Under the pieces are notes generated by a model, which saw only the letters and a list, made by a program, of their open reading frames with translations, was not told the origin of the DNA and made no database searches. Positions 9,640 to 41,591 of a stretch of 41,591 nucleotides of DNA are shown here, one piece after another (the stretch's first letter is position 1; every line of letters begins with the position of its first letter). The DNA is taken from IMG/VR virus record IMGVR_UViG_3300044852_000021, positions 1 to 41,591 of that record, one strand, 5' to 3'. Source of the DNA: a virus. Lineage: Duplodnaviria; Caudoviricetes. Position numbers and translations under genes: made by a program.

Positions 9640-9749
9640 GCCGACATCACCGCAAACTCTTTAGCCGTGGTGTGGACTGTTGGGCGGATCGGGTGGTGGA
9701 CCTCGATGTTTCCGGTTATCTCGATGCGGGATTCCTCGATGGTGGTCAT
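9636..9749 (-). CDS. Hypothetical protein, 37 aa
   Basis: Manual translation MTTIEESRIEITGNIEVHHPIRPTVHTTAKEFAVMSA; AGGAG RBS. Confidence 0.6.
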   Translation of the reverse strand: MTTIEESRIEITGNIEVHHPIRPTVHTTAKEFAVMSA

Positions 9750-10336
9750 GCTGTTCTCCTGTCTGCGTCGTTGTGGGTGAAAAGCGAAAGCCGCAGTTGC
9801 CTCGCGGCTTCTGCGGCTTCCTCGATGGTTTTGAAGGAGCCCCCGTAGAGCTTCTTTCCGTTGTGCCCGACCGCAACCTGATAGCGGTTCTTGCCGCTTC
9901 GCACGACGCCCAGCGCTCCGGTAGAGCTATTGCGCTGAGCGCCGCTGTCATGCTCCATGTTCTGCTTGTGGGTCACGGGGCGCAGGTGGCCCGGGTTGAC
10001 GCAGGCGCGGTTGCTACAGCGGTGGTCTAGCTGCATTCCTTCTGGGATTGGGCCGACCAGCAGCTCATAGGCGAAGCGGTGGGCGGGATGGTTCTTCCCC
10101 TTGTATCCCTCCGCGAATGACCCATAGCCCTGGTCGGTCTTCGCGCCTGCCCAGTTCCAGCACCCCGGCCCTTTCTGAACTTTCATCCAGAATCGGTCAA
10201 CCATGGGGACGTGCCGGTTGGTCGTGCAAACATTGGGATCGCCCTGCCTTATCCAGCGCTGGTGATGCGTGCCGCACCATGTGCGGGCTTTCGCCGGCTT
10301 CACGCATCCTTCGATGGAGCACTCGGCGGCGCTCAT
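9746..10336 (-). CDS. HNH homing endonuclease with AP2-like domain
   Basis: RFWMKV, CWNWAG and DHRCSNRACVNPGHL. Confidence 0.9.
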   Translation of the reverse strand: MSAAECSIEGCVKPAKARTWCGTHHQRWIRQGDPNVCTTNRHVPMVDRFWMKVQKGPGCWNWAGAKTDQGYGSFAEGYKGKNHPAHRFAYELLVGPIPEGMQLDHRCSNRACVNPGHLRPVTHKQNMEHDSGAQRNSSTGALGVVRSGKNRYQVAVGHNGKKLYGGSFKTIEEAAEAARQLRLSLFTHNDADRRTA

Positions 10337-10694: not shown

Positions 10695-10889
10695 CTACTT
10701 GGTGGGCTGTGCTTCGAGCCAGGCTTTTACGGATTCGGGGCTGTAGCGGACGAGGCCGCCTATCCGGATGAACTCCGGGCCCTTTTTGTTGGTCCGCCAG
10801 TTTGCGATGGTGCCTACGGATACCTGCCACATGTGGGCCAGGTCATCGGGGGTGAGATACTGGGCTGCCGGGGCTGGGGTGTCGCTCAT
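10695..10889 (-). CDS. xis: Excisionase / MerR-AlpA-like HTH protein
   Basis: YLTPDDLAHMWQVSVGTIANWRTNKKGPEFIRIGGLVRY; follows cro. Confidence 0.8.
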   Translation of the reverse strand: MSDTPAPAAQYLTPDDLAHMWQVSVGTIANWRTNKKGPEFIRIGGLVRYSPESVKAWLEAQPTK

Positions 10890-11113
10890 GCTGTTTCCTT
10901 GAGGATGTCGATGAGTCCCAGGTCGAGGGCTTTTGCGATTTCCCCCGCTTCACGGATGGTGAAGTTCTCGGGGCGATTCATGTTTCGGTAGAGGGTGCTT
11001 TTTGCGATGCTTGCCCTGGTGGCTAGCTCGTTTCGGGTGAGGTTTTTGTTTTCCAGGGCTTGTTCGATGTTCTTGGTGATTGCCGCACTTCGGCGGGCTT
11101 CTTCGATTCCCAT
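10886..11113 (-). CDS. Cro-like XRE HTH protein
   Basis: LTRNELATRASIAKSTLYRNM HTH; first gene of the lytic operon, divergent from the repressor. Confidence 0.8.
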   Translation of the reverse strand: MGIEEARRSAAITKNIEQALENKNLTRNELATRASIAKSTLYRNMNRPENFTIREAGEIAKALDLGLIDILKETA

Positions 11114-11119
11114 GCTTCG

Positions 11120-11148
11120 ACCATAGTTCCCAAATGGGAATCAGGCAA
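11120..11148 (-). promoter_or_regulatory. Early lytic promoter (leaderless) containing a palindromic operator
   Basis: TTGCCT-17bp-TATGGT-6bp-ATG; operator TTCCCAAATGGGAA (11127-11140) sits between -35 and -10. Confidence 0.75.
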
Positions 11149-11247: not shown

Positions 11248-11323
11248 ATCCCAGTTTGGGTAGTTAATTTCCCAAACTGACTTGTTAACTGCACAAATGG
11301 GCGCTAGATTATGGATATGGGAA
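11248..11323 (+). promoter_or_regulatory. Repressor promoter (leaderless) with operator-like sites
   Basis: TTGTTA(11282)-17bp-TAGATT(11305)-6bp-ATG(11317); CCCA/TGGG half-sites; inverted repeat CAGTTTGGG-N10-CCCAAACTG (11252-11279). Confidence 0.7.
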
Positions 11324-11571
11324 ATTACGGAATCGACATCCAGGCAGCTCTTGTCATCCAGGTTAAAGCCGAGATGGCCGCCAGGGACATGAAGCAGAAG
11401 GATATGGCTCAGCACATTGGCATGCAGACCAGTACGCTCAGCCGCTACCTCTCGGGCGAGAGGGATATTCCGATGCCCGTCGTGTTTAGCATGGCGAGCG
11501 CGCTGAACTTGTCCATTATCGAACTGGTCCAGCGCGCCGAGCGCCGGCTAGAGGGTAAGGATGTCCAGTAG
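11317..11571 (+). CDS. Immunity repressor, XRE HTH, 84 aa, no autocleavage domain
   Basis: MKQKDMAQHIGMQTSTLSRYLSGERDIP HTH; divergent from cro. Confidence 0.8.
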   Translation: MGNYGIDIQAALVIQVKAEMAARDMKQKDMAQHIGMQTSTLSRYLSGERDIPMPVVFSMASALNLSIIELVQRAERRLEGKDVQ

Positions 11572-11676
11572 TTTCATCCCGTAAGACTCGGCCACCTCGC
11601 CAAGTTCTCGCGCCGTCATCGTTTCGAGGTTGATAGCGTCGCGGATCGACGGCGGGTGGAGCTGTTCGCGTTTCAT
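11548..11676 (-). CDS. Small protein, candidate damage-inducible antirepressor (alternative ATG at 11694)
   Basis: MKREQLHPPSIRDAINLETMTARELGEVAESYGMKLLDILTL; resembles the Cro C-terminus; PafBC-type promoter and SOS-like box upstream. Confidence 0.6.
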   Translation of the reverse strand: MKREQLHPPSIRDAINLETMTARELGEVAESYGMKLLDILTL

Positions 11677-11701
11677 GATTGGTGTAACCCCCATGGCTCG
11701 T

Positions 11702-11717
11702 TCGTAGATATGTTCGA
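11702..11717. promoter_or_regulatory. LexA (SOS) box-like site
   Basis: TCGTAG-ATAT-GTTCGA against the actinobacterial consensus TCGAAC-N4-GTTCGA (2 mismatches). Confidence 0.6.
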
Positions 11718-11725
11718 ATAAATAC

Positions 11726-11747
11726 ACCCTAGGCCACCCGCCTGACA
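11726..11747 (-). promoter_or_regulatory. PafBC-type (RecA-NDp) DNA-damage promoter
   Basis: Minus strand TGTCAG-GCGGGTGGCC-TAGGGT fits TGTCRG-N10-TANNNT. Confidence 0.7.
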
Positions 11748-11780
11748 CTCTGACAAGTGTTTAGGCGGGTGGCCTTTTTT
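11731..11780 (+). terminator. Intrinsic terminator for the repressor transcript
   Basis: AGGCCACCCGCCT...AGGCGGGTGGCCT stem followed by a T run. Confidence 0.8.
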
Positions 11781-11970
11781 GATCCAGGTGCGCTACTGCC
11801 GAGCGTACCCAATTGACGGTCGAAAGTTAAATCTGCGTTGAGCATCTGCTTTTTAACGACGTACACTTGGTAATGATCATCCAGATTCCATATAGAATCT
11901 GAGTATGCCCTCGCCGCGCCCGCGGACTCCTGAGGGGTTCCGAGAGTGGAAAGTGACTACCATGGACAAC

Positions 11971-12249
11971 ATGCCAAGAGGAAAGATGCAAGAGTCCCAC
12001 GAACTCGCACGAGCTATCGCTGCCGAGATTCGCGCCACTCTCGCCCGTCAAAACATGACCATCAAAGACTTGGCACTGACGAGCGGCATCTCCCAGGGCT
12101 ACCTCGGCAAGAGGCTGCGAGACGAAGCTCCGCTAAACCTGAACGACCTGCAAGCGATCTGCGATGTCTTCGAAAAAGACGTACTTGGGTTCATGTCCGC
12201 CGCGAAGGATGCCGCCGAGCCTGAGTCGAGGGGTCGAAGTGAGAGGTAG
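11971..12249 (+). CDS. Second XRE-family HTH regulator upstream of the integrase (alternative start at 11905)
   Basis: MTIKDLALTSGISQGYLGKRLRDEAPL HTH; TACCAT 7 nt before the ATG. Confidence 0.8.
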   Translation: MPRGKMQESHELARAIAAEIRATLARQNMTIKDLALTSGISQGYLGKRLRDEAPLNLNDLQAICDVFEKDVLGFMSAAKDAAEPESRGRSER

Positions 12250-13372
12250 AGCGCCGTTGCCGATTGGCACGAGTGGGCAGGTTTCATACTCGGGGCCCAA
12301 GGGTAAGATTGTGGCCCTTACCCGCTTCAGGGACTTTGACGGCGTTACTCGTCGTGTGTCCGCGCATGGCACATCACGTGCTGCCGCTGATGCCGCGTTG
12401 AAGGAGAAGCTGAAAGCGCGCACACACTTGGGCGGCCTAGAGCTAACCCGAGACTCTACGATCAGGGAGTTGTCTGAGCGGTGGCTACCGACCCTTACCC
12501 AGTCGCAGGCAACACAGGATTCGTACCGACAGAAAGTGGAGCGGTACATCCTGCCCGCCATGGGCGCGTGGAGGCTATGGGAGGCCACGACGGGCCGCTG
12601 TGAGGCTTTCCTGAGAACCTTGCAGGCAACCGCGCCGTCCATGGCGTCACAGAGCCGCGTGGTCCTATCCCTCATGATGGGACTCGCAGTGCGTTACGAC
12701 ATTATCGACCAGAACCCGGTGCGTGAAGTGATGATGGCGGCGGGGGAGAAGAAGCATGTTTCCGCGCTCACTGTTGAAGAGGTCCAGCAGCTCCGTCTGC
12801 ACATTGCCCAGTGGGCGAGTGAGAAGCCGGGGAGGGCTGCAACCTTGGACGCCATGGATATGTTTCTGGCAACCGGGCTGCGCCCTGGGGAGCTGCTGTC
12901 ATTGCAGTTCTCGGACGTTGACTTCCGGGCTGGAACTATCGCAGTGACGGGTACGGTCAAGAGGGATTCCGTGAATGGCTTGCATCGGCAGGCATTCCCT
13001 AAGTCGGAGTCCGGTAAGCGCGTGCTCACGCTGCCCCTATTCGGTGTGGAACTTCTGCGCCGCAGGAAGGTATCTGTTGCGGGGGATCTGGTGTTTCCTA
13101 ATCGGAATGGGGATCCGATGGAGCCGGCGAACTTCCGGAGGCTGTGGCGCGATGCCCGCGGCGATCAGTGGGAGGCAGTCAAGCCGTCGTCATTCCGCAA
13201 GGCCGTGGCAACTCTGATTGAGCGCGAGAGCGGATCCCTCATCGCATCCAGGCAGCTCGGTCACAGTTCGGACTCGATCACGAAGAGGCACTACATCGAG
13301 CGGAACAGGAACGCTCCTGACTCGTCGCTGATCTTGGAGCAGATGAATCAGCGCGTCACGCTGGTCCAATAA
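12239..13372 (+). CDS. int: Tyrosine integrase
   Basis: TGLRPGELL, PKS, SSFRKAVAT and QLGHS...TKRHY; GTG start overlaps the end of the HTH gene; attP follows. Confidence 0.95.
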   Translation: MRGRAPLPIGTSGQVSYSGPKGKIVALTRFRDFDGVTRRVSAHGTSRAAADAALKEKLKARTHLGGLELTRDSTIRELSERWLPTLTQSQATQDSYRQKVERYILPAMGAWRLWEATTGRCEAFLRTLQATAPSMASQSRVVLSLMMGLAVRYDIIDQNPVREVMMAAGEKKHVSALTVEEVQQLRLHIAQWASEKPGRAATLDAMDMFLATGLRPGELLSLQFSDVDFRAGTIAVTGTVKRDSVNGLHRQAFPKSESGKRVLTLPLFGVELLRRRKVSVAGDLVFPNRNGDPMEPANFRRLWRDARGDQWEAVKPSSFRKAVATLIERESGSLIASRQLGHSSDSITKRHYIERNRNAPDSSLILEQMNQRVTLVQ

Positions 13373-13417: not shown

Positions 13418-13431
13418 GCCCGGTTTTAGGC

Positions 13432-13484
13432 AAAAAGAAAACCGCTCCAGTACCGGCTTTTGACCAGTACTGGAGCGGTTTTTT
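13432..13484. terminator. Bidirectional terminator between int and the attP core
   Basis: 16-bp perfect inverted repeat AAAACCGCTCCAGTAC/GTACTGGAGCGGTTTT with A and T runs on the flanks. Confidence 0.85.
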
Positions 13485-13488
13485 GACT

Positions 13489-13525
13489 GTGCACCCCCCG
13501 GGACTCGAACCCGGAACCCATTGAT
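13489..13525 (-). other. attP core: 3' half of a host tRNA, probably tRNA-Lys(CTT)
   Basis: Minus strand ATCAATGGGTTCCGGGTTCGAGTCCCGGGGGGTGCAC (3' anticodon stem, T-arm, acceptor strand); isotype assigned from memory of actinobacterial tRNA-Lys. Confidence 0.8.
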
Positions 13526-13664
13526 CTAGAATAGCGCAACTGTTGCATACCCCACGGAAGTCCACGATAATGCCCTAACGGTCATGCAAAAACCGCGAAA
13601 TGACGCGAAATTAGCTCACGTTAAATCACGGCACGCCCCGCTGGCCCACGACATACAACGGATT

Positions 13665-29133: not shown

Positions 29134-29396
29134 CAGCCCCCCAGTTGATCGAACACGCGGACGAGTGTCTGGTGCTTGGCGTTATCGCGGATCGCCTTGA
29201 AGTCGTCCGTGAACACGGTCCCGATAGCGCGGCCCAACGTGCCCCGCCCAACACCCTGCACAACAGACCCGACATAGCCCGGCCCGGCAGCAGAAGCCGC
29301 GGCGTCAACGCTGGATTCCAGCATGCGAACAGCCTCGGGTGAGCGGCGGATCTCTTCGAAGCCGGCTTGACGCCACTTGAACTTGGTCTTAGCCAT
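29133..29396 (-). CDS. Neck/tail completion protein (HK97 gp10-like position)
   Basis: GFEEIRRSPE...NAKHQTLVR; synteny. Confidence 0.75.
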   Translation of the reverse strand: MAKTKFKWRQAGFEEIRRSPEAVRMLESSVDAAASAAGPGYVGSVVQGVGRGTLGRAIGTVFTDDFKAIRDNAKHQTLVRVFDQLGG

Positions 29397-36281: not shown

Positions 36282-36518
36282 TTAGTCGTCGTCGGTGTCG
36301 CAGTCGGACATGACGGTTTCGGCGTAGTGGAGTAGGCCGATTGCGTGGTGGTAGGGCAGGTCGCTATCCCTGTAGTAGTACCCTGTGCGGCCTGCTGTTT
36401 GCGTGACTGTTGATGCGACGAATAGCCATTCGGTGAGGTATTCGGGCGGGCCATCATTGACGTCGGCTACGTGCGCGGCGATGGCGTCGTGTATTGCCTG
36501 GAACGTTGCGTCACTCAT
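36282..36518 (-). CDS. Hypothetical protein
   Basis: 78-aa ORF, GGAGG RBS, ATGA coupling. Confidence 0.75.
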   Translation of the reverse strand: MSDATFQAIHDAIAAHVADVNDGPPEYLTEWLFVASTVTQTAGRTGYYYRDSDLPYHHAIGLLHYAETVMSDCDTDDD

Positions 36519-37843
36519 GCCGCTACCTCCATGCCGTCAATGAGTGCTACACCGTTGCGGATGCGGTAGACGTGCGGCCATGATTCGGTGTCGTTGTAGT
36601 AGGCGATCCCGAACCCTTGCTGCCAGTTCTCTACGATCCTTGCCGGCGTGCCATCAGCGCCGATAGCGCCGTTGACGCTGGGCACTGCACCGTCTACACG
36701 GCAGAGGCAGCCGGGGTTAGCCGAGTATGACTCGATGGCTTCACCTCGGGCGCCCATGACTGAGCGGTAGGTGATTTCTACGCGGTGCGTGTGGCCTGCC
36801 CATGTGTTGAGGTGGGGCAGCTCGAAGACGTACTGCGATGTCGTACTGCCGCGGCTGTTGGCTTTGGTGCCGTGGATGTTGCGGGTTGTCGCGTTGTCCC
36901 AGTCGGTCGCGGCGGGGTAGGCGTCAACGTATTGGATGTTCAGCTCATCCAGGCGCAACAGGTAGGGCAGGCTCATGACGGGCCATGACTCAGGCAGGTT
37001 CGCCCGCTTGAGTCCGAACGCTGCTAGCGCGTTGGCTTCGATGAAGTTCTGCATGCGCTTGTCATGGTTGCCTTCGATGACGACTATCTCGGCATCGGGG
37101 CATGCGGCGCGCAACGTGGCGAGGAACTTGTGACCGGTGTCGATTGCTTCCTGCGTCGTGCTTGCGAAGGCGGCTTCTTGCGCGAATCGGCCTTGCGACG
37201 CGAGGTCTAGGAAGTCGCCAAGGATCTGGATCTTGTCAGGCTGCATCTTGTGGGCGGTCTTCGTGAAGACGTCCATGGCGGCTTGGTCGTGGAACGGGTC
37301 AAGGGATCCGTCAGCGAGTCGTCGGTAGCCGATCTGTGTGTCAGCGCCCTTGAGTGCCAGCTTCATGCCGCGGACGGGCTTTGCTGGCGTGTTGGTGATG
37401 GTGACGTTGACCGGCGCTGCGGGCTGAATGACAGGCCATGCGGGGGAGCCGTCAGCCGTTGCGCCAATGGGGCGCACGTTGAGCAACTTGTTCCATGCCC
37501 CGCCTGCGGGGTTGGAAGTCCAGCCCCAGGTAAACGTTACGGCGTCCGGGTCCTGCCCAGTTGAGCGGATGAATGCCCGGTAGTCCTCGAAGCCCCACGG
37601 CTTATCGCTGAACCTTGTGTAACTGCTAGAGCCGTCCGGGTTGTGCTGCTCGGACTCGCCGCTATTTAGGGCTGGTGCCGCAACGAGCAAATCGGGGACT
37701 GTTGTTGCTCGTTCGCAAGCGCAATTACCCGAACGGTGCGAGTTGATGGCCGACTTGCCCATACCGAGGAACCGTGCGGCCTGACGTGATGTCATGGCTT
37801 CAGTGTTCGCCGTTGACGCGGCTCCGTACTTGCAGAGTGACAT
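36515..37843 (-). CDS. Calcineurin-like metallophosphoesterase with an N-terminal HTH-like region
   Basis: ADTQ, LGDFLD, EGNHD, IHG and GHTHR motifs. Confidence 0.85.
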   Translation of the reverse strand: MSLCKYGAASTANTEAMTSRQAARFLGMGKSAINSHRSGNCACERATTVPDLLVAAPALNSGESEQHNPDGSSSYTRFSDKPWGFEDYRAFIRSTGQDPDAVTFTWGWTSNPAGGAWNKLLNVRPIGATADGSPAWPVIQPAAPVNVTITNTPAKPVRGMKLALKGADTQIGYRRLADGSLDPFHDQAAMDVFTKTAHKMQPDKIQILGDFLDLASQGRFAQEAAFASTTQEAIDTGHKFLATLRAACPDAEIVVIEGNHDKRMQNFIEANALAAFGLKRANLPESWPVMSLPYLLRLDELNIQYVDAYPAATDWDNATTRNIHGTKANSRGSTTSQYVFELPHLNTWAGHTHRVEITYRSVMGARGEAIESYSANPGCLCRVDGAVPSVNGAIGADGTPARIVENWQQGFGIAYYNDTESWPHVYRIRNGVALIDGMEVAA

Positions 37844-38008: not shown

Positions 38009-38084
38009 TGGCAAGGGTGACAGGACTCGAACCTGCGACATTCGGTTTTGGAGACCGACGCTCTACCAACTGAGCTACACCGAT
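38009..38084 (-). tRNA. trnW: tRNA-Trp(CCA) with encoded CCA end and two acceptor-stem mismatches
   Basis: ATCGGTG TA GCTC AGTTGGTA GAGC G TCGGT CTCCAAA ACCGA ATGTC GCAGG TTCGAGT CCTGT CACCCTT G CCA. Confidence 0.85.
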
Positions 38085-39435: not shown

Positions 39436-39827
39436 GATTCCTCCTGGCTGATTGTGATGATGACCGCGGCTGGCCCCTTGCCGCCTTGACGCAGGTCCGG
39501 GCCGATCAGGTGGTTGTTGGTGTCGTCGGGGATGAGGCCGTAGTCCACGAGTCCGTCTACGCAGGCTTTGAGCGTTGGCATGAGGTTGTGAACGTCATAC
39601 TGACGGGCGGTGGGCTTGGTGATGTGGGCTACGATATGGACGCGGTCGAGGCCCTTGGGGAGCTCGGCTAGGTGTGCGCCGAGTAGCGCGTTACGTCTCC
39701 ACGCCCGGGTTAGTTCGGCCTTGGGTGCCCAGTGCATTCTTTGGTTCGCGTTGAGCCACTTGATGGACGCGGGGATGGTGATGGTCCACGTCCCCGCCTT
39801 CTTCGCCGATGCTCTCGTGCGGGTCAT
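39432..39827 (-). CDS. rusA: RusA-like Holliday junction resolvase
   Basis: LNANQRMHW and YDVHNLMPTLKACVDGLVDYGLIPDD. Confidence 0.85.
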   Translation of the reverse strand: MTRTRASAKKAGTWTITIPASIKWLNANQRMHWAPKAELTRAWRRNALLGAHLAELPKGLDRVHIVAHITKPTARQYDVHNLMPTLKACVDGLVDYGLIPDDTNNHLIGPDLRQGGKGPAAVIITISQEES

Positions 39828-40357
39828 GCGGCTGCTCCTTTAACTGGAAAAGCCGCCTGGTTTGGGCGGCTTCGGTCTGCGTCGTTATGCGTTTGTAGTT
39901 CGCTGCGTTTGGCTATTACCGCTGCCTCGGCGTCATCTAGGTTGATGAAGTAGCCGACGTGGAGCACTCTGTTGTGGTGGCTTACCTGCGCTACCCATCG
40001 GCTACTTTTGGCCCGCCAACTGACGCCGCGGACGCCACTCGTGTTGGTGCGAAGTGGTCCCGAGTGGTTCTCCATGTTCTGCTTCCGCGTGACCTTGCGT
40101 AGGTGCGCTGGGTTGCAACACGCTCTGTTGTGGCAAGTGTGGTCTACCTCAATGGACGTTGATAGTTTCTCGCCGGTATACACCTCCCACATGACGCGGT
40201 GGGCAACATAGCGCCGACTGCGCATTTTGAACCGCCCATAGCCGGTGCTGTTCTTGTTGCCCTCCCAGCCCCAGCAATCACCCTCCGTATTCACGCTGGC
40301 GTAGAACCTTTCGACCTCAGCCGGTGTCAGCGTGGGGATCTCGTTAGTTATTGGCAT
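39824..40357 (-). CDS. HNH homing endonuclease with AP2-like domain
   Basis: CWGWEG, AHRVMWE, DHTCHNRACCNPAHL and NTSGVRGVSW; GGAGG RBS before ATG 40357. Confidence 0.9.
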   Translation of the reverse strand: MPITNEIPTLTPAEVERFYASVNTEGDCWGWEGNKNSTGYGRFKMRSRRYVAHRVMWEVYTGEKLSTSIEVDHTCHNRACCNPAHLRKVTRKQNMENHSGPLRTNTSGVRGVSWRAKSSRWVAQVSHHNRVLHVGYFINLDDAEAAVIAKRSELQTHNDADRSRPNQAAFPVKGAAA

Positions 40358-41591
40358 GTGAAGCCTCCTGGAGTCGCCTAGCTTGTGCTTGTGGGGTAAC
40401 GCCCATATCAAGGCATTTCGAGTAGCAACCCCAGAACTGCATTTCCGCGAGCCCTGTTGCGCCGTGCCGATTCTTGGCAACCAGCATTGCTAGGTCGTTG
40501 CGGTTGTCGCCCATGATTTCGCGGTGCAGCAGAATCACTACGTCGGCGTCTTGTTCGATGGCGCCGGATTCGCGCATGTCGCTTATCTGGGGCATTTTGT
40601 CTTCGCGCTGGGTGGATCCGCGGTTGAGCTGCGAGAGTGCGATGACGGGGATTTGCATGTCCATGGCAAGGATCTTCAACTGCCGGGACATGTCGGCGAC
40701 GAATTCGTGTCGGGGCCGCTTGTCTCCTGGCTGCTGAGACAGGAGCTGAAGATAGTCAACGACGATGCCGGCGAGTGGCTTGCGGCGGTTGACGCTGCGG
40801 GCGAACCTCTTGATGTCGGTGATTGTGGCGCCGGATCGGTCGTCAACGAATAGCGGCACGTCGGACCATGAGGCGCGGCGGTCACGGATCTTTGCCCAGT
40901 CGCCCGGGGTCAGGTTCCGTTCGATGAGCCGCCCGACGTCGAGGTTGAGGTCAGATGAGACGGCGCGGATTTGCACGTCATTGTTGCTCATTTCGAGCGA
41001 CGAGAACGCAACCGAACCGTGCGCCGCCAAACCCTGCGCGAGGTTCAGCGCGACAACACTTTTGCCCACGCTGGGACGGGCCGCGACGACGTACAGCGCC
41101 CCGGGCCGCAACCCGCCGATGACCTGGTTGAGCGCGTCCCATGGTGTCGGGCGGTGGTTGATTTCTTCGTCCAACGTCCCGAGCATGGCGTCGATGGTTT
41201 CGCCGAATGATTGGACGACTGACCCGGTTGCGCGTGAGGTCTGGTCAACCTCCCGCCGTGACGCCTCTACGAGTTCGTCAACGTCCCCGGCGCCGGTTGC
41301 TAGGTCCTGGATTTTGCGGCCCGCAGCGAGCAGCCTGCGCCTTGTGGCGGCGTTGGCTACTATCTCCGCGTAGTAGGCGCCCGCACTGGCTGACGGGACG
41401 GTGAGCGCCAACTGGTGCGTGTATGACGGCCCGCCAGCGTGTGCGATCTCCCCGGCCTTGGATAGCGTGTCGTTGATCGTGATCGCGTCCACCGGCTTAC
41501 CCGCGCCGTGAACCTCCAGGATCGTCCGGTAGATCGTTTCGTGCGCGGGCTGGTAGAAGTCGCCGCCGGTCAGGATGTCCGCGATGTCCGC
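40344..41591 (-). CDS. dnaB: DnaB-like replicative helicase, main part (starts at 202 across the join)
   Basis: AARPSVGKS, SLEMS, VVDYLQL, ALSQLNR, RESGAIEQDAD and KNRHG. Confidence 0.95.
   Translation of the reverse strand, partial: ADIADILTGGDFYQPAHETIYRTILEVHGAGKPVDAITINDTLSKAGEIAHAGGPSYTHQLALTVPSASAGAYYAEIVANAATRRRLLAAGRKIQDLATGAGDVDELVEASRREVDQTSRATGSVVQSFGETIDAMLGTLDEEINHRPTPWDALNQVIGGLRPGALYVVAARPSVGKSVVALNLAQGLAAHGSVAFSSLEMSNNDVQIRAVSSDLNLDVGRLIERNLTPGDWAKIRDRRASWSDVPLFVDDRSGATITDIKRFARSVNRRKPLAGIVVDYLQLLSQQPGDKRPRHEFVADMSRQLKILAMDMQIPVIALSQLNRGSTQREDKMPQISDMRESGAIEQDADVVILLHREIMGDNRNDLAMLVAKNRHGATGLAEMQFWGCYSKCLDMGVTPQAQARRLQEASHANN
41465..41591. repeat. Terminal direct repeat, copy 2
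   Basis: Identical to 1-127. Confidence 0.95.

Follow-up and report, generated by a model that had tools for sequence, protein, structure and literature searches.

A putative damage-controlled, Cro-like antirepressor gene overlapping the repressor gene in a family of actinobacterial phages

Layout of the control region

We know of no explanation for the way in which actinobacterial prophages detect DNA damage when their repressors cannot be cleaved, and none was found in the literature searched. The question is raised by the control region of a complete temperate phage related to Arthrobacter phages, which forms a single virus record of 41,591 bases (the whole stretch analyzed here, referred to below as the window). 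The gene content of the window includes terminase, portal, capsid, tail, endolysin, helicase and tRNA-Trp genes, and the nine records matched by the sequence of its control region are all Arthrobacter phages. The gene order is excisionase and cro on the minus strand, an 84-aa XRE repressor on the plus strand, a small ORF on the minus strand, and HTH2 and a tyrosine integrase on the plus strand, with the following features.

10695..10889, minus strand: excisionase-like HTH_17 protein, following cro
10886..11113, minus strand: Cro/Mor-like XRE protein, 75 aa, first gene of the early operon
11317..11571, plus strand: XRE repressor, 84 aa, Pfam HTH_3 only; homologs are labelled 'immunity repressor' (annotation only)
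11548..11676, minus strand: Cro-like helix 4-5 protein, 42 aa, candidate antirepressor; its last 24 nt overlap the 3' end of the repressor gene
11962..12249, plus strand: HTH2, the second XRE protein besides the repressor; divergent from the small gene and 5' of the integrase
12164..13372, plus strand: tyrosine integrase, start codon uncertain

The initial annotation had stated that the repressor lacks a protease domain, which holds well beyond the gene itself: HTH_3 is the only Pfam domain of the repressor, and neither the self-cleaving Peptidase_S24 nor the ImmA-type Peptidase_M78 has a match anywhere in the complete genome. No Peptidase_M78 gene adjoins the repressor, as one would in an ImmA/ImmR-type switch. 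HTH2 perhaps controls the integrase. Candidate repressor operators are found between cro and the repressor as the palindromes TTCCCAAATGGGAA (11127-11140) and CCCAGTTTGGG (11250-11260); in a second clade of relatives, the candidate operator is TGTCC-N3-GGACA within the cro promoter.

A tRNA-like 3' fragment (…GGTTCGAGTCCCGGGGGGTGCAC on the minus strand) at 13426-13548, not called by ARAGORN, adjoins the integrase and is probably the attP for a host tRNA gene. The same genome carries three related HNH endonuclease genes (PHROG 3593; 1177-1815, 9746-10336 and 39824-40480, minus strand), and a metallo-phosphoesterase gene (36515-37843) and the tRNA-Trp gene (38009-38084), both on the minus strand, are located near the packaging genes. 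Beside the control region of the related phage Maja (L006:1-1869), the annotation lists both a tyrosine and a serine integrase.

Damage-type promoter, LexA-type box and their conservation

The small ORF is preceded by the following signals.

11742..11747, minus strand: PafBC-type -26 element TGTCAG, exact motif; the same element is upstream of host recA in 3/3 genomes
11726..11731, minus strand: -10 element TAGGGT (tA-N3-T), 10 nt after the -26 element
11702..11717, no strand assigned: LexA-type box TCGAACATATCTACGA, just 3' of the inferred start and 8 nt past TAGGGT
11688..11692, minus strand: ribosome-binding site GGGGG, preceding the ATG at 11676
11731..11780, plus strand: hairpin with a T6 tail, z = -6.8, overlapping the damage promoter

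The motif pair described in the initial annotation, TGTCAG-N10-TAGGGT at 11747-11726 and TCGAACATATCTACGA at 11717-11702 with an 8-nt gap, was verified at these positions, and the element spacing would place transcription initiation near 11719. The ORF behind it is real as well; its likely start is the ATG at 11676 (42 aa), which is common to relatives and has GGGGG (11692-11688) upstream. The hairpin around the promoter, the overlap of the ORF with the repressor gene and the antisense course of the transcript had been overlooked. The transcript would run antisense across the repressor gene toward cro, on the strand of cro, and the plus-strand hairpin is the probable terminator of the repressor transcript.

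TGTCAG-N10-TANNNT has a single exact occurrence in the 41.6-kb genome. When sites were scored with weight matrices trained on relatives with the window excluded, the promoter was the top site of the genome (20.1 bits vs 11.8 for the next promoter-like site), as was the LexA box (21.7 bits vs 9.1 for the next; the median of 60 relatives is 22.6). The second-ranked sites, at 29274 and 29149-29164, lie within late structural genes and were dismissed as chance. A sigma-70 promoter and terminator scan, whose rules do not extend to PafBC promoters or long stems, gave nothing here. No RNA holder is listed for this region, a result that carries no information on expression.

PafBC is described as binding tGTCgg-N10-tA-N3-T, a -26/-10 hybrid promoter (PMC8635444), and a second study reports that TGTCAG and TGTCAC variants occur and that the direction of the motif matters (PMC8151990). 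In mycobacteria, control by both PafBC and LexA is described for recA and imuA'B (PMC8635444, PMC8682763, PMC8151990). The promoter in the window, with a TGTC[GA]G -26 element, a 10-nt spacer and tA-N3-T, is aimed at the small gene and resembles the promoters of the mycobacterial PafBC regulon in motif, spacing and direction. In contrast to that regulon, it is phage-borne, and the box lies just after the -10 element of the same promoter, whereas host recA has separate sites (P1/P2). The consensus of the actinobacterial LexA box is TCGAAC-N4-GTTCGA. Three Arthrobacter/Pseudarthrobacter genomes that carry the repressor encode a fused double-WYL (PafBC-type) protein and LexA. In all three, host recA carries TGTCRG-N10-TAGCGT and a LexA-type box, with the box upstream of the PafBC site. 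The host lexA loci carry boxes too, TAGAACACATATTCGA among them, and these variants are shared with the phages. The strict promoter combined with a perfect LexA box has 0 sites in the three host genomes. From these shared motifs, we infer that PafBC and LexA act on the phage sites.

Loci for comparison were gathered from viral, genome and metagenome collections with the repressor as the sole anchor, giving 121 including the window; removal of four with cut repressors, four with less than 300 nt of 3' DNA and 25 redundant loci left 88. These loci are kin rather than independent, so the counts measure conservation and not separate origins. Within the 300 nt 3' of the repressor, on the opposite strand, the strict TGTCRG-N10-TANNNT is present in 62/88 loci and the TGTC-NN form in 79/88, always on the strand of the small gene; the LexA box (at most two mismatches) is present in 54/88 and the pair of promoter and box in 61/88. 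The same strand, four downstream offsets and three shuffles, used as controls, gave 0-2 promoter motifs and no pairs, and no PafBC motif was present within 300 nt in nine of the 88 loci. The small-protein profile matches 80/88 loci, 75 of which are its own training rows, and 0 of 63-70 at the control offsets; a further 17 plus-strand matches were discarded, since that stretch holds helices 4-5 of the repressor itself. Co-conservation of motifs and ORF in relatives, which the initial annotation had proposed as a check on its reading, is thus observed, and to a degree well above chance.

Across the 79 promoters the hexamers are fixed and the spacer is variable, and the start codon is mostly about 40 nt past the -10 element. 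A box (at most three mismatches) accompanies 61 of them, mostly 7-10 nt after the -10 element, and none is recognizable in 18. The motif persists across repressors that are ~35-40% identical and have differing candidate operators. Eleven loose 'PafBC' matches between the repressor and cro were mostly TGTCC-N3-GGACA palindromes in a TTGCAA..TACAT-type promoter, and were taken as operators and left uncounted. The claim that both host damage pathways gate the small gene can be kept for PafBC and does not generalize to LexA, whose box is missing in 18/79 promoters; judged by the motifs, PafBC is the constant core input and LexA a common second lock.

Promoter, box and ORF are present in all eight cultured phages checked (seven from Arthrobacter and one from Propionibacterium), and among phages of Arthrobacter globiformis, a harmless laboratory host, the module is carried by Bridgette, Sarge, Hestia, Bauer, Zucker and Maja. 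The small gene is unannotated in Hestia, Bridgette and E6 and labelled 'DNA-binding' in Zucker and Maja; for Hestia, Bridgette, Zucker and Maja, the present analysis amounts to an annotation correction. A blind scan of IMG/VR for the motif pair returned 24 matches, seven of which are the same cassette; the others are mostly lower-GC contigs without the small gene. The repressor was found in 21/401 genomes of the host family, 13/401 of the order and 2/401 of the phylum, with the loose promoter in 12/22 family-level loci. Nine distant order-level repressor homologs have neither motif, and one of them has the small gene; the module fades with distance from the window.

Several individual loci deviate from the common arrangement. 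L093 has an intact repressor with no recognizable small gene or promoter behind it. In L087, the spacer of the PafBC element measures 4 nt and the LexA box is intact; both are possibly induction-defective or rewired prophages. On a high-GC virus contig (L015:1501-1546, minus strand), a PafBC-type promoter and a perfect LexA box stand ahead of a 301-309-aa tyrosine-recombinase-like ORF. In L022 (1501-1546, plus strand), the motif pair precedes an unrelated 49-aa basic ORF, which faces an excisionase-like and a Cro-like gene and is a different cargo behind the same promoter type.

The small protein and its predicted complex with the repressor

The alignments used here cover 75 of the 88 loci, 13 being omitted because the small ORF was not called, divergent or doubtful. 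The 75 aligned members range from 31 to 95 aa and share a core of XRE helix 4, a turn and helix 5; 56 of them have at most 24 residues before helix 4, and T21 and A29 are kept in 97-99%. The core is under purifying selection outside the overlap with the repressor gene (pN/pS 0.33 in 276 close pairs), and third-position divergence in the same pairs is 0.50 vs 0.20 and 0.16. Shifted frames have a pN/pS of 1.5-2.0; in the antisense frame whose third positions coincide, the value is 0.39.

The small protein had been described as resembling the Cro C-terminus without the HTH helices. On direct reading, the small protein does share 11/26 residues with the Cro segment without gaps, and the 42-aa form in the window indeed keeps helices 4-5 only. 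The likeness to Cro is conserved and extends to profiles (probability 95.4, E 1.7e-8, against 66.2 and 5.5e-5 for the repressor), and the small protein is nearer its own Cro than its own repressor in 50/60 loci and nearer Cro than HTH2 in 58/60. The preference for Cro over the repressor is strongest at the predicted interface positions (identity 0.40 vs 0.27); the small protein shows little likeness to HTH2, and what there is does not follow the locus (p = 0.93). What does not stand is the simple view of a piece cut from the phage's own Cro: the 42-aa form is a trimmed family member, because the family also has 61-aa forms with a whole XRE fold. These have a predicted five-helix XRE fold (pLDDT 87), and their nearest folds are the N-domains of Stl, DdrO and SinR (1b0n), with a TM of about 0.7 and a best E of 0.03, none below 0.001. 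The HTH of the long forms is variable (entropy 1.94 vs 0.85 in repressors) and has a net negative charge in 9/11, whereas the repressors are positive in 11/11. A basic conserved recognition helix is hence missing in the short forms and replaced by a variable, mostly acidic one in the long forms. The family resembles a copy of Cro in which DNA binding was lost first and, in most lineages, the HTH afterwards.

The 75 members matched no Pfam family above cut-off, and the small protein had no real PHROG match and no PDB sequence match; a Rho_N match at E 0.03 was rejected. By sequence, it belongs to none of the named antirepressor families compared (Pfam, PHROG, PDB). When 1.84 billion proteins were searched by profile, 47 matched at E ≤0.001, and the ten looked up are all unnamed. 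In the small ORFs of L067, L116 and L142 and in the proteins P0036, P0043 and P0044, the helix 4-5 motif occurs as a tandem duplicate, and the two copies perhaps bind two repressor types or both subunits.

A complex of the repressor and the small protein was modelled from one 75-row alignment each. It scored 0.84, against 0.01 for the best of three controls, a value that was obtained with author-built alignments and may reflect resemblance to XRE dimers of known structure (the repressor is related in sequence to HipB, and the CI-NTD:Mor structure has been solved). The score mark of this test is reached by 116/157 solved complexes and 2/215 mismatched pairs; near cousins of true partners also pass, so the score is no ground for preferring the repressor to Cro or HTH2 as the partner. 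The model is a 1:1 complex in which the partner pLDDT is at least 78 and the runs share 100% of contacts. The heterodimer with the repressor suggested in the initial annotation is supported at the level of a model.

In the predicted complex, the invariant P52-x-P54 loop of the repressor, together with its helix 1, receives the near-invariant T21 of the small protein and the residues beside it. The T-[VI]-R-E-x-G helix of the small protein contacts helix 1, the P-M-P loop and helix 5 of the repressor (residues 2-12, 50-57 and 67-75), and the recognition helix (about residues 37-44) is left free. Conservation of the repressor interface is no higher than that of the remainder (entropy 1.38 vs 1.33). 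In TP901-1, the CI regions that bind Mor are the N-terminus, the start of helix 4 and the C-terminal part (PMC11149083), and the repressor surface in our model covers all three.

One mosaic pair, L037 and L133, is 90% identical from the promoter to the middle of the core and has repressors that are 40% identical. The last helix of the small protein tracks the repressor class in this pair, part of which is forced by the overlap, and the pattern fits cognate pairing. A helix-5 position shared by the repressor, the small protein and Cro in 63/65 loci was set aside as proof of co-evolution, because the agreement follows two clades and the leucine codon in the clade of the window is the complement of the repressor stop codon.

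A proposed induction switch and its alternatives

The motifs and their conservation at the sequence level, together with the complex model, suggest that the small gene probably encodes a DNA-damage-induced, Mor-like antirepressor. At host genes, damage generates single-stranded DNA, PafBC activates promoters and LexA is cleaved. In the phage, PafBC would turn on the small-gene promoter once LexA leaves the start-site box, and the Cro-like product would then bind the phage repressor. The predicted contact surface is probably the one through which the repressor dimerizes, and its occupation would break the dimer; the repressor would leave its operators, and cro-xis transcription and the lytic cycle would follow. 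The antisense transcript through the repressor gene toward cro may add interference or read-through. Because the box lies just past the presumed start, after the -10 element of the same promoter, activation by PafBC and derepression from LexA may both be needed at one promoter (AND logic). The position of the box does not prove such logic, because ruvC of M. tuberculosis is reportedly induced independently of RecA despite a well-placed SOS box.

Four other readings were considered. The transcript itself could be the main effector, with head-on polymerase silencing the repressor gene by collision or antisense and reading into cro-xis, and the peptide only helping. The promoter does face the repressor and cro on the strand of cro and overlaps the probable terminator of the repressor, and a T-tailed hairpin separates it from cro in only 1/72 loci; that scan may miss sites, and actinobacterial terminators often have no T tails. 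An account led by the transcript is nevertheless unlikely, given that purifying selection acts on the part of the ORF beyond the overlap, that the peptide keeps T21 and A29 almost without exception and fits the repressor in the model, and that pre-existing repressor protein would still require inactivation. A little further down the scale we place a peptide acting as a dominant-negative of Cro or HTH2, which would retune early or integrase/excision transcription during damage. Such a Cro-dimer poison would be expected to resemble Cro more than the repressor, notably at interface positions, as the peptide does, and both possible targets are common (Cro in 72/76 loci; HTH2 in 62/73 loci with enough DNA). 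Yet a second Mor-like ligand of the repressor would likewise resemble Cro, the predicted complex with the repressor scores confidently and involves the invariant P52 and P54, and blocking Cro upon damage would leave the non-cleavable repressor standing; for HTH2, the low likeness that is untracked by locus is a further objection.

It is also conceivable, if improbable, that on binding the repressor the peptide takes the role that Mor has at PR, that of a co-repressor or target switch, and stops repressor synthesis or even keeps the prophage quiet during repair. Mor is described as both antirepressor and co-repressor (PMC11149083, PMC11323111), and the recognition helix of the repressor is free in the predicted interface. 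A composite operator is nonetheless unlikely for the short forms, which have no DNA-binding helices (56/75 with at most 24 residues before helix 4), and the LexA-controlled small phage proteins studied so far promote induction (PMC3121763; bioRxiv 2025.11.27.690993). The motifs might, lastly, be by-products of the terminator hairpin or phage operators that host PafBC and LexA do not read, a view to which we give hardly any weight. The -26 element and spacer sit within a strong hairpin in the window, and a similar one is present in 32/79 loci, where it may add constraint. The promoter is kept without such a hairpin in 47/79 loci, however, so the hairpin cannot account for the motif. In addition, fixed hexamers flank a variable spacer, the motif is strand-specific, it is retained across divergent repressors with differing candidate operators, and host recA and lexA bear the same motifs.

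The antirepressor reading can be extended into a joint one, which we put forward tentatively, as possible rather than probable. In this extension, the prophages would form a PafBC-induced actinobacterial family in which RecA is dispensable where the LexA box is absent and a one-promoter PafBC-AND-LexA gate operates where it is present. The trigger would be a duplicated, DNA-binding-dead Cro whose gene overlaps the repressor 3' end, such that the specificity helix travels with its cognate repressor in phage recombination; Cro itself would be a Mor-like repressor ligand, and a single transcript would yield the antirepressor while obstructing the repressor gene.

Tum of phage 186 and AntC of N15 are LexA-controlled antirepressors. 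GfoA and GfhA of the Gifsy phages (PMC3121763) and Sar of the SPbeta family, a DNA mimic (bioRxiv 2025.11.27.690993), are likewise described as small antirepressors under LexA control. The present locus resembles all of these in having a non-cleavable repressor and, at the sequence level, a separate small gene behind a LexA box, and its induction would by the model also run via protein-protein inactivation. It differs from them in that the constant input is an activator-dependent PafBC promoter and LexA is optional. Furthermore, the small gene overlaps the repressor 3' end head-on, whereas the Gifsy antirepressors are outside the immunity region (PMC3121763), and in contrast to the DNA mimic Sar, its product is a paralog of Cro that corresponds to XRE helices 4-5.

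The predicted contacts are Mor-like: in CI:Mor of TP901-1 and phi13 (PMC11149083), the HTH domain of the repressor is bound by a protein of the XRE/HTH type that occupies the place of Cro, and the repressor surface predicted in our model covers the same three regions. Mor is the first gene of the lytic operon and controlled by CI; here Cro holds that place, and the small gene is a second, trimmed Cro-like copy with its own promoter, putatively under host damage control, facing a repressor that is a single 84-aa domain. SinI of Bacillus, a small HTH-less paralog fragment, titrates the XRE repressor SinR by heterodimer formation, as the small protein would do here. SinI mimics a separate C-terminal oligomerization domain and is chromosomal and not damage-controlled; the mimic here corresponds to helices 4-5 of the HTH domain itself and would be damage-controlled. 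As in the TF-smORF modules that include Qtip, a small ORF would inactivate its cognate repressor without cleavage in phage-specific pairs; those modules are driven by phage-encoded factors and independent of SOS, with smORFs that have no recognizable domain (PMC10432266).

The literature searched, which covered sources other than subscription journals and supplements (where motif tables may exist), contains no report that PafBC controls a phage gene and none describing the small-gene family, and the module is conserved and apparently undescribed. For damage sensing by prophages with non-cleavable repressors, it offers a candidate promoter and gene together with a surface predicted to bind the repressor. 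Because PafBC and SOS respond to different damage types (PMC8682763), the drugs that rouse a phage with the LexA box should differ from those that rouse one without it. If the proposed mechanism is true, it would explain the waking of prophages whose repressor has no self-cleavage domain, and would be a first case in which phage induction is timed by a WYL-type activator pathway and not only by the loss of LexA.
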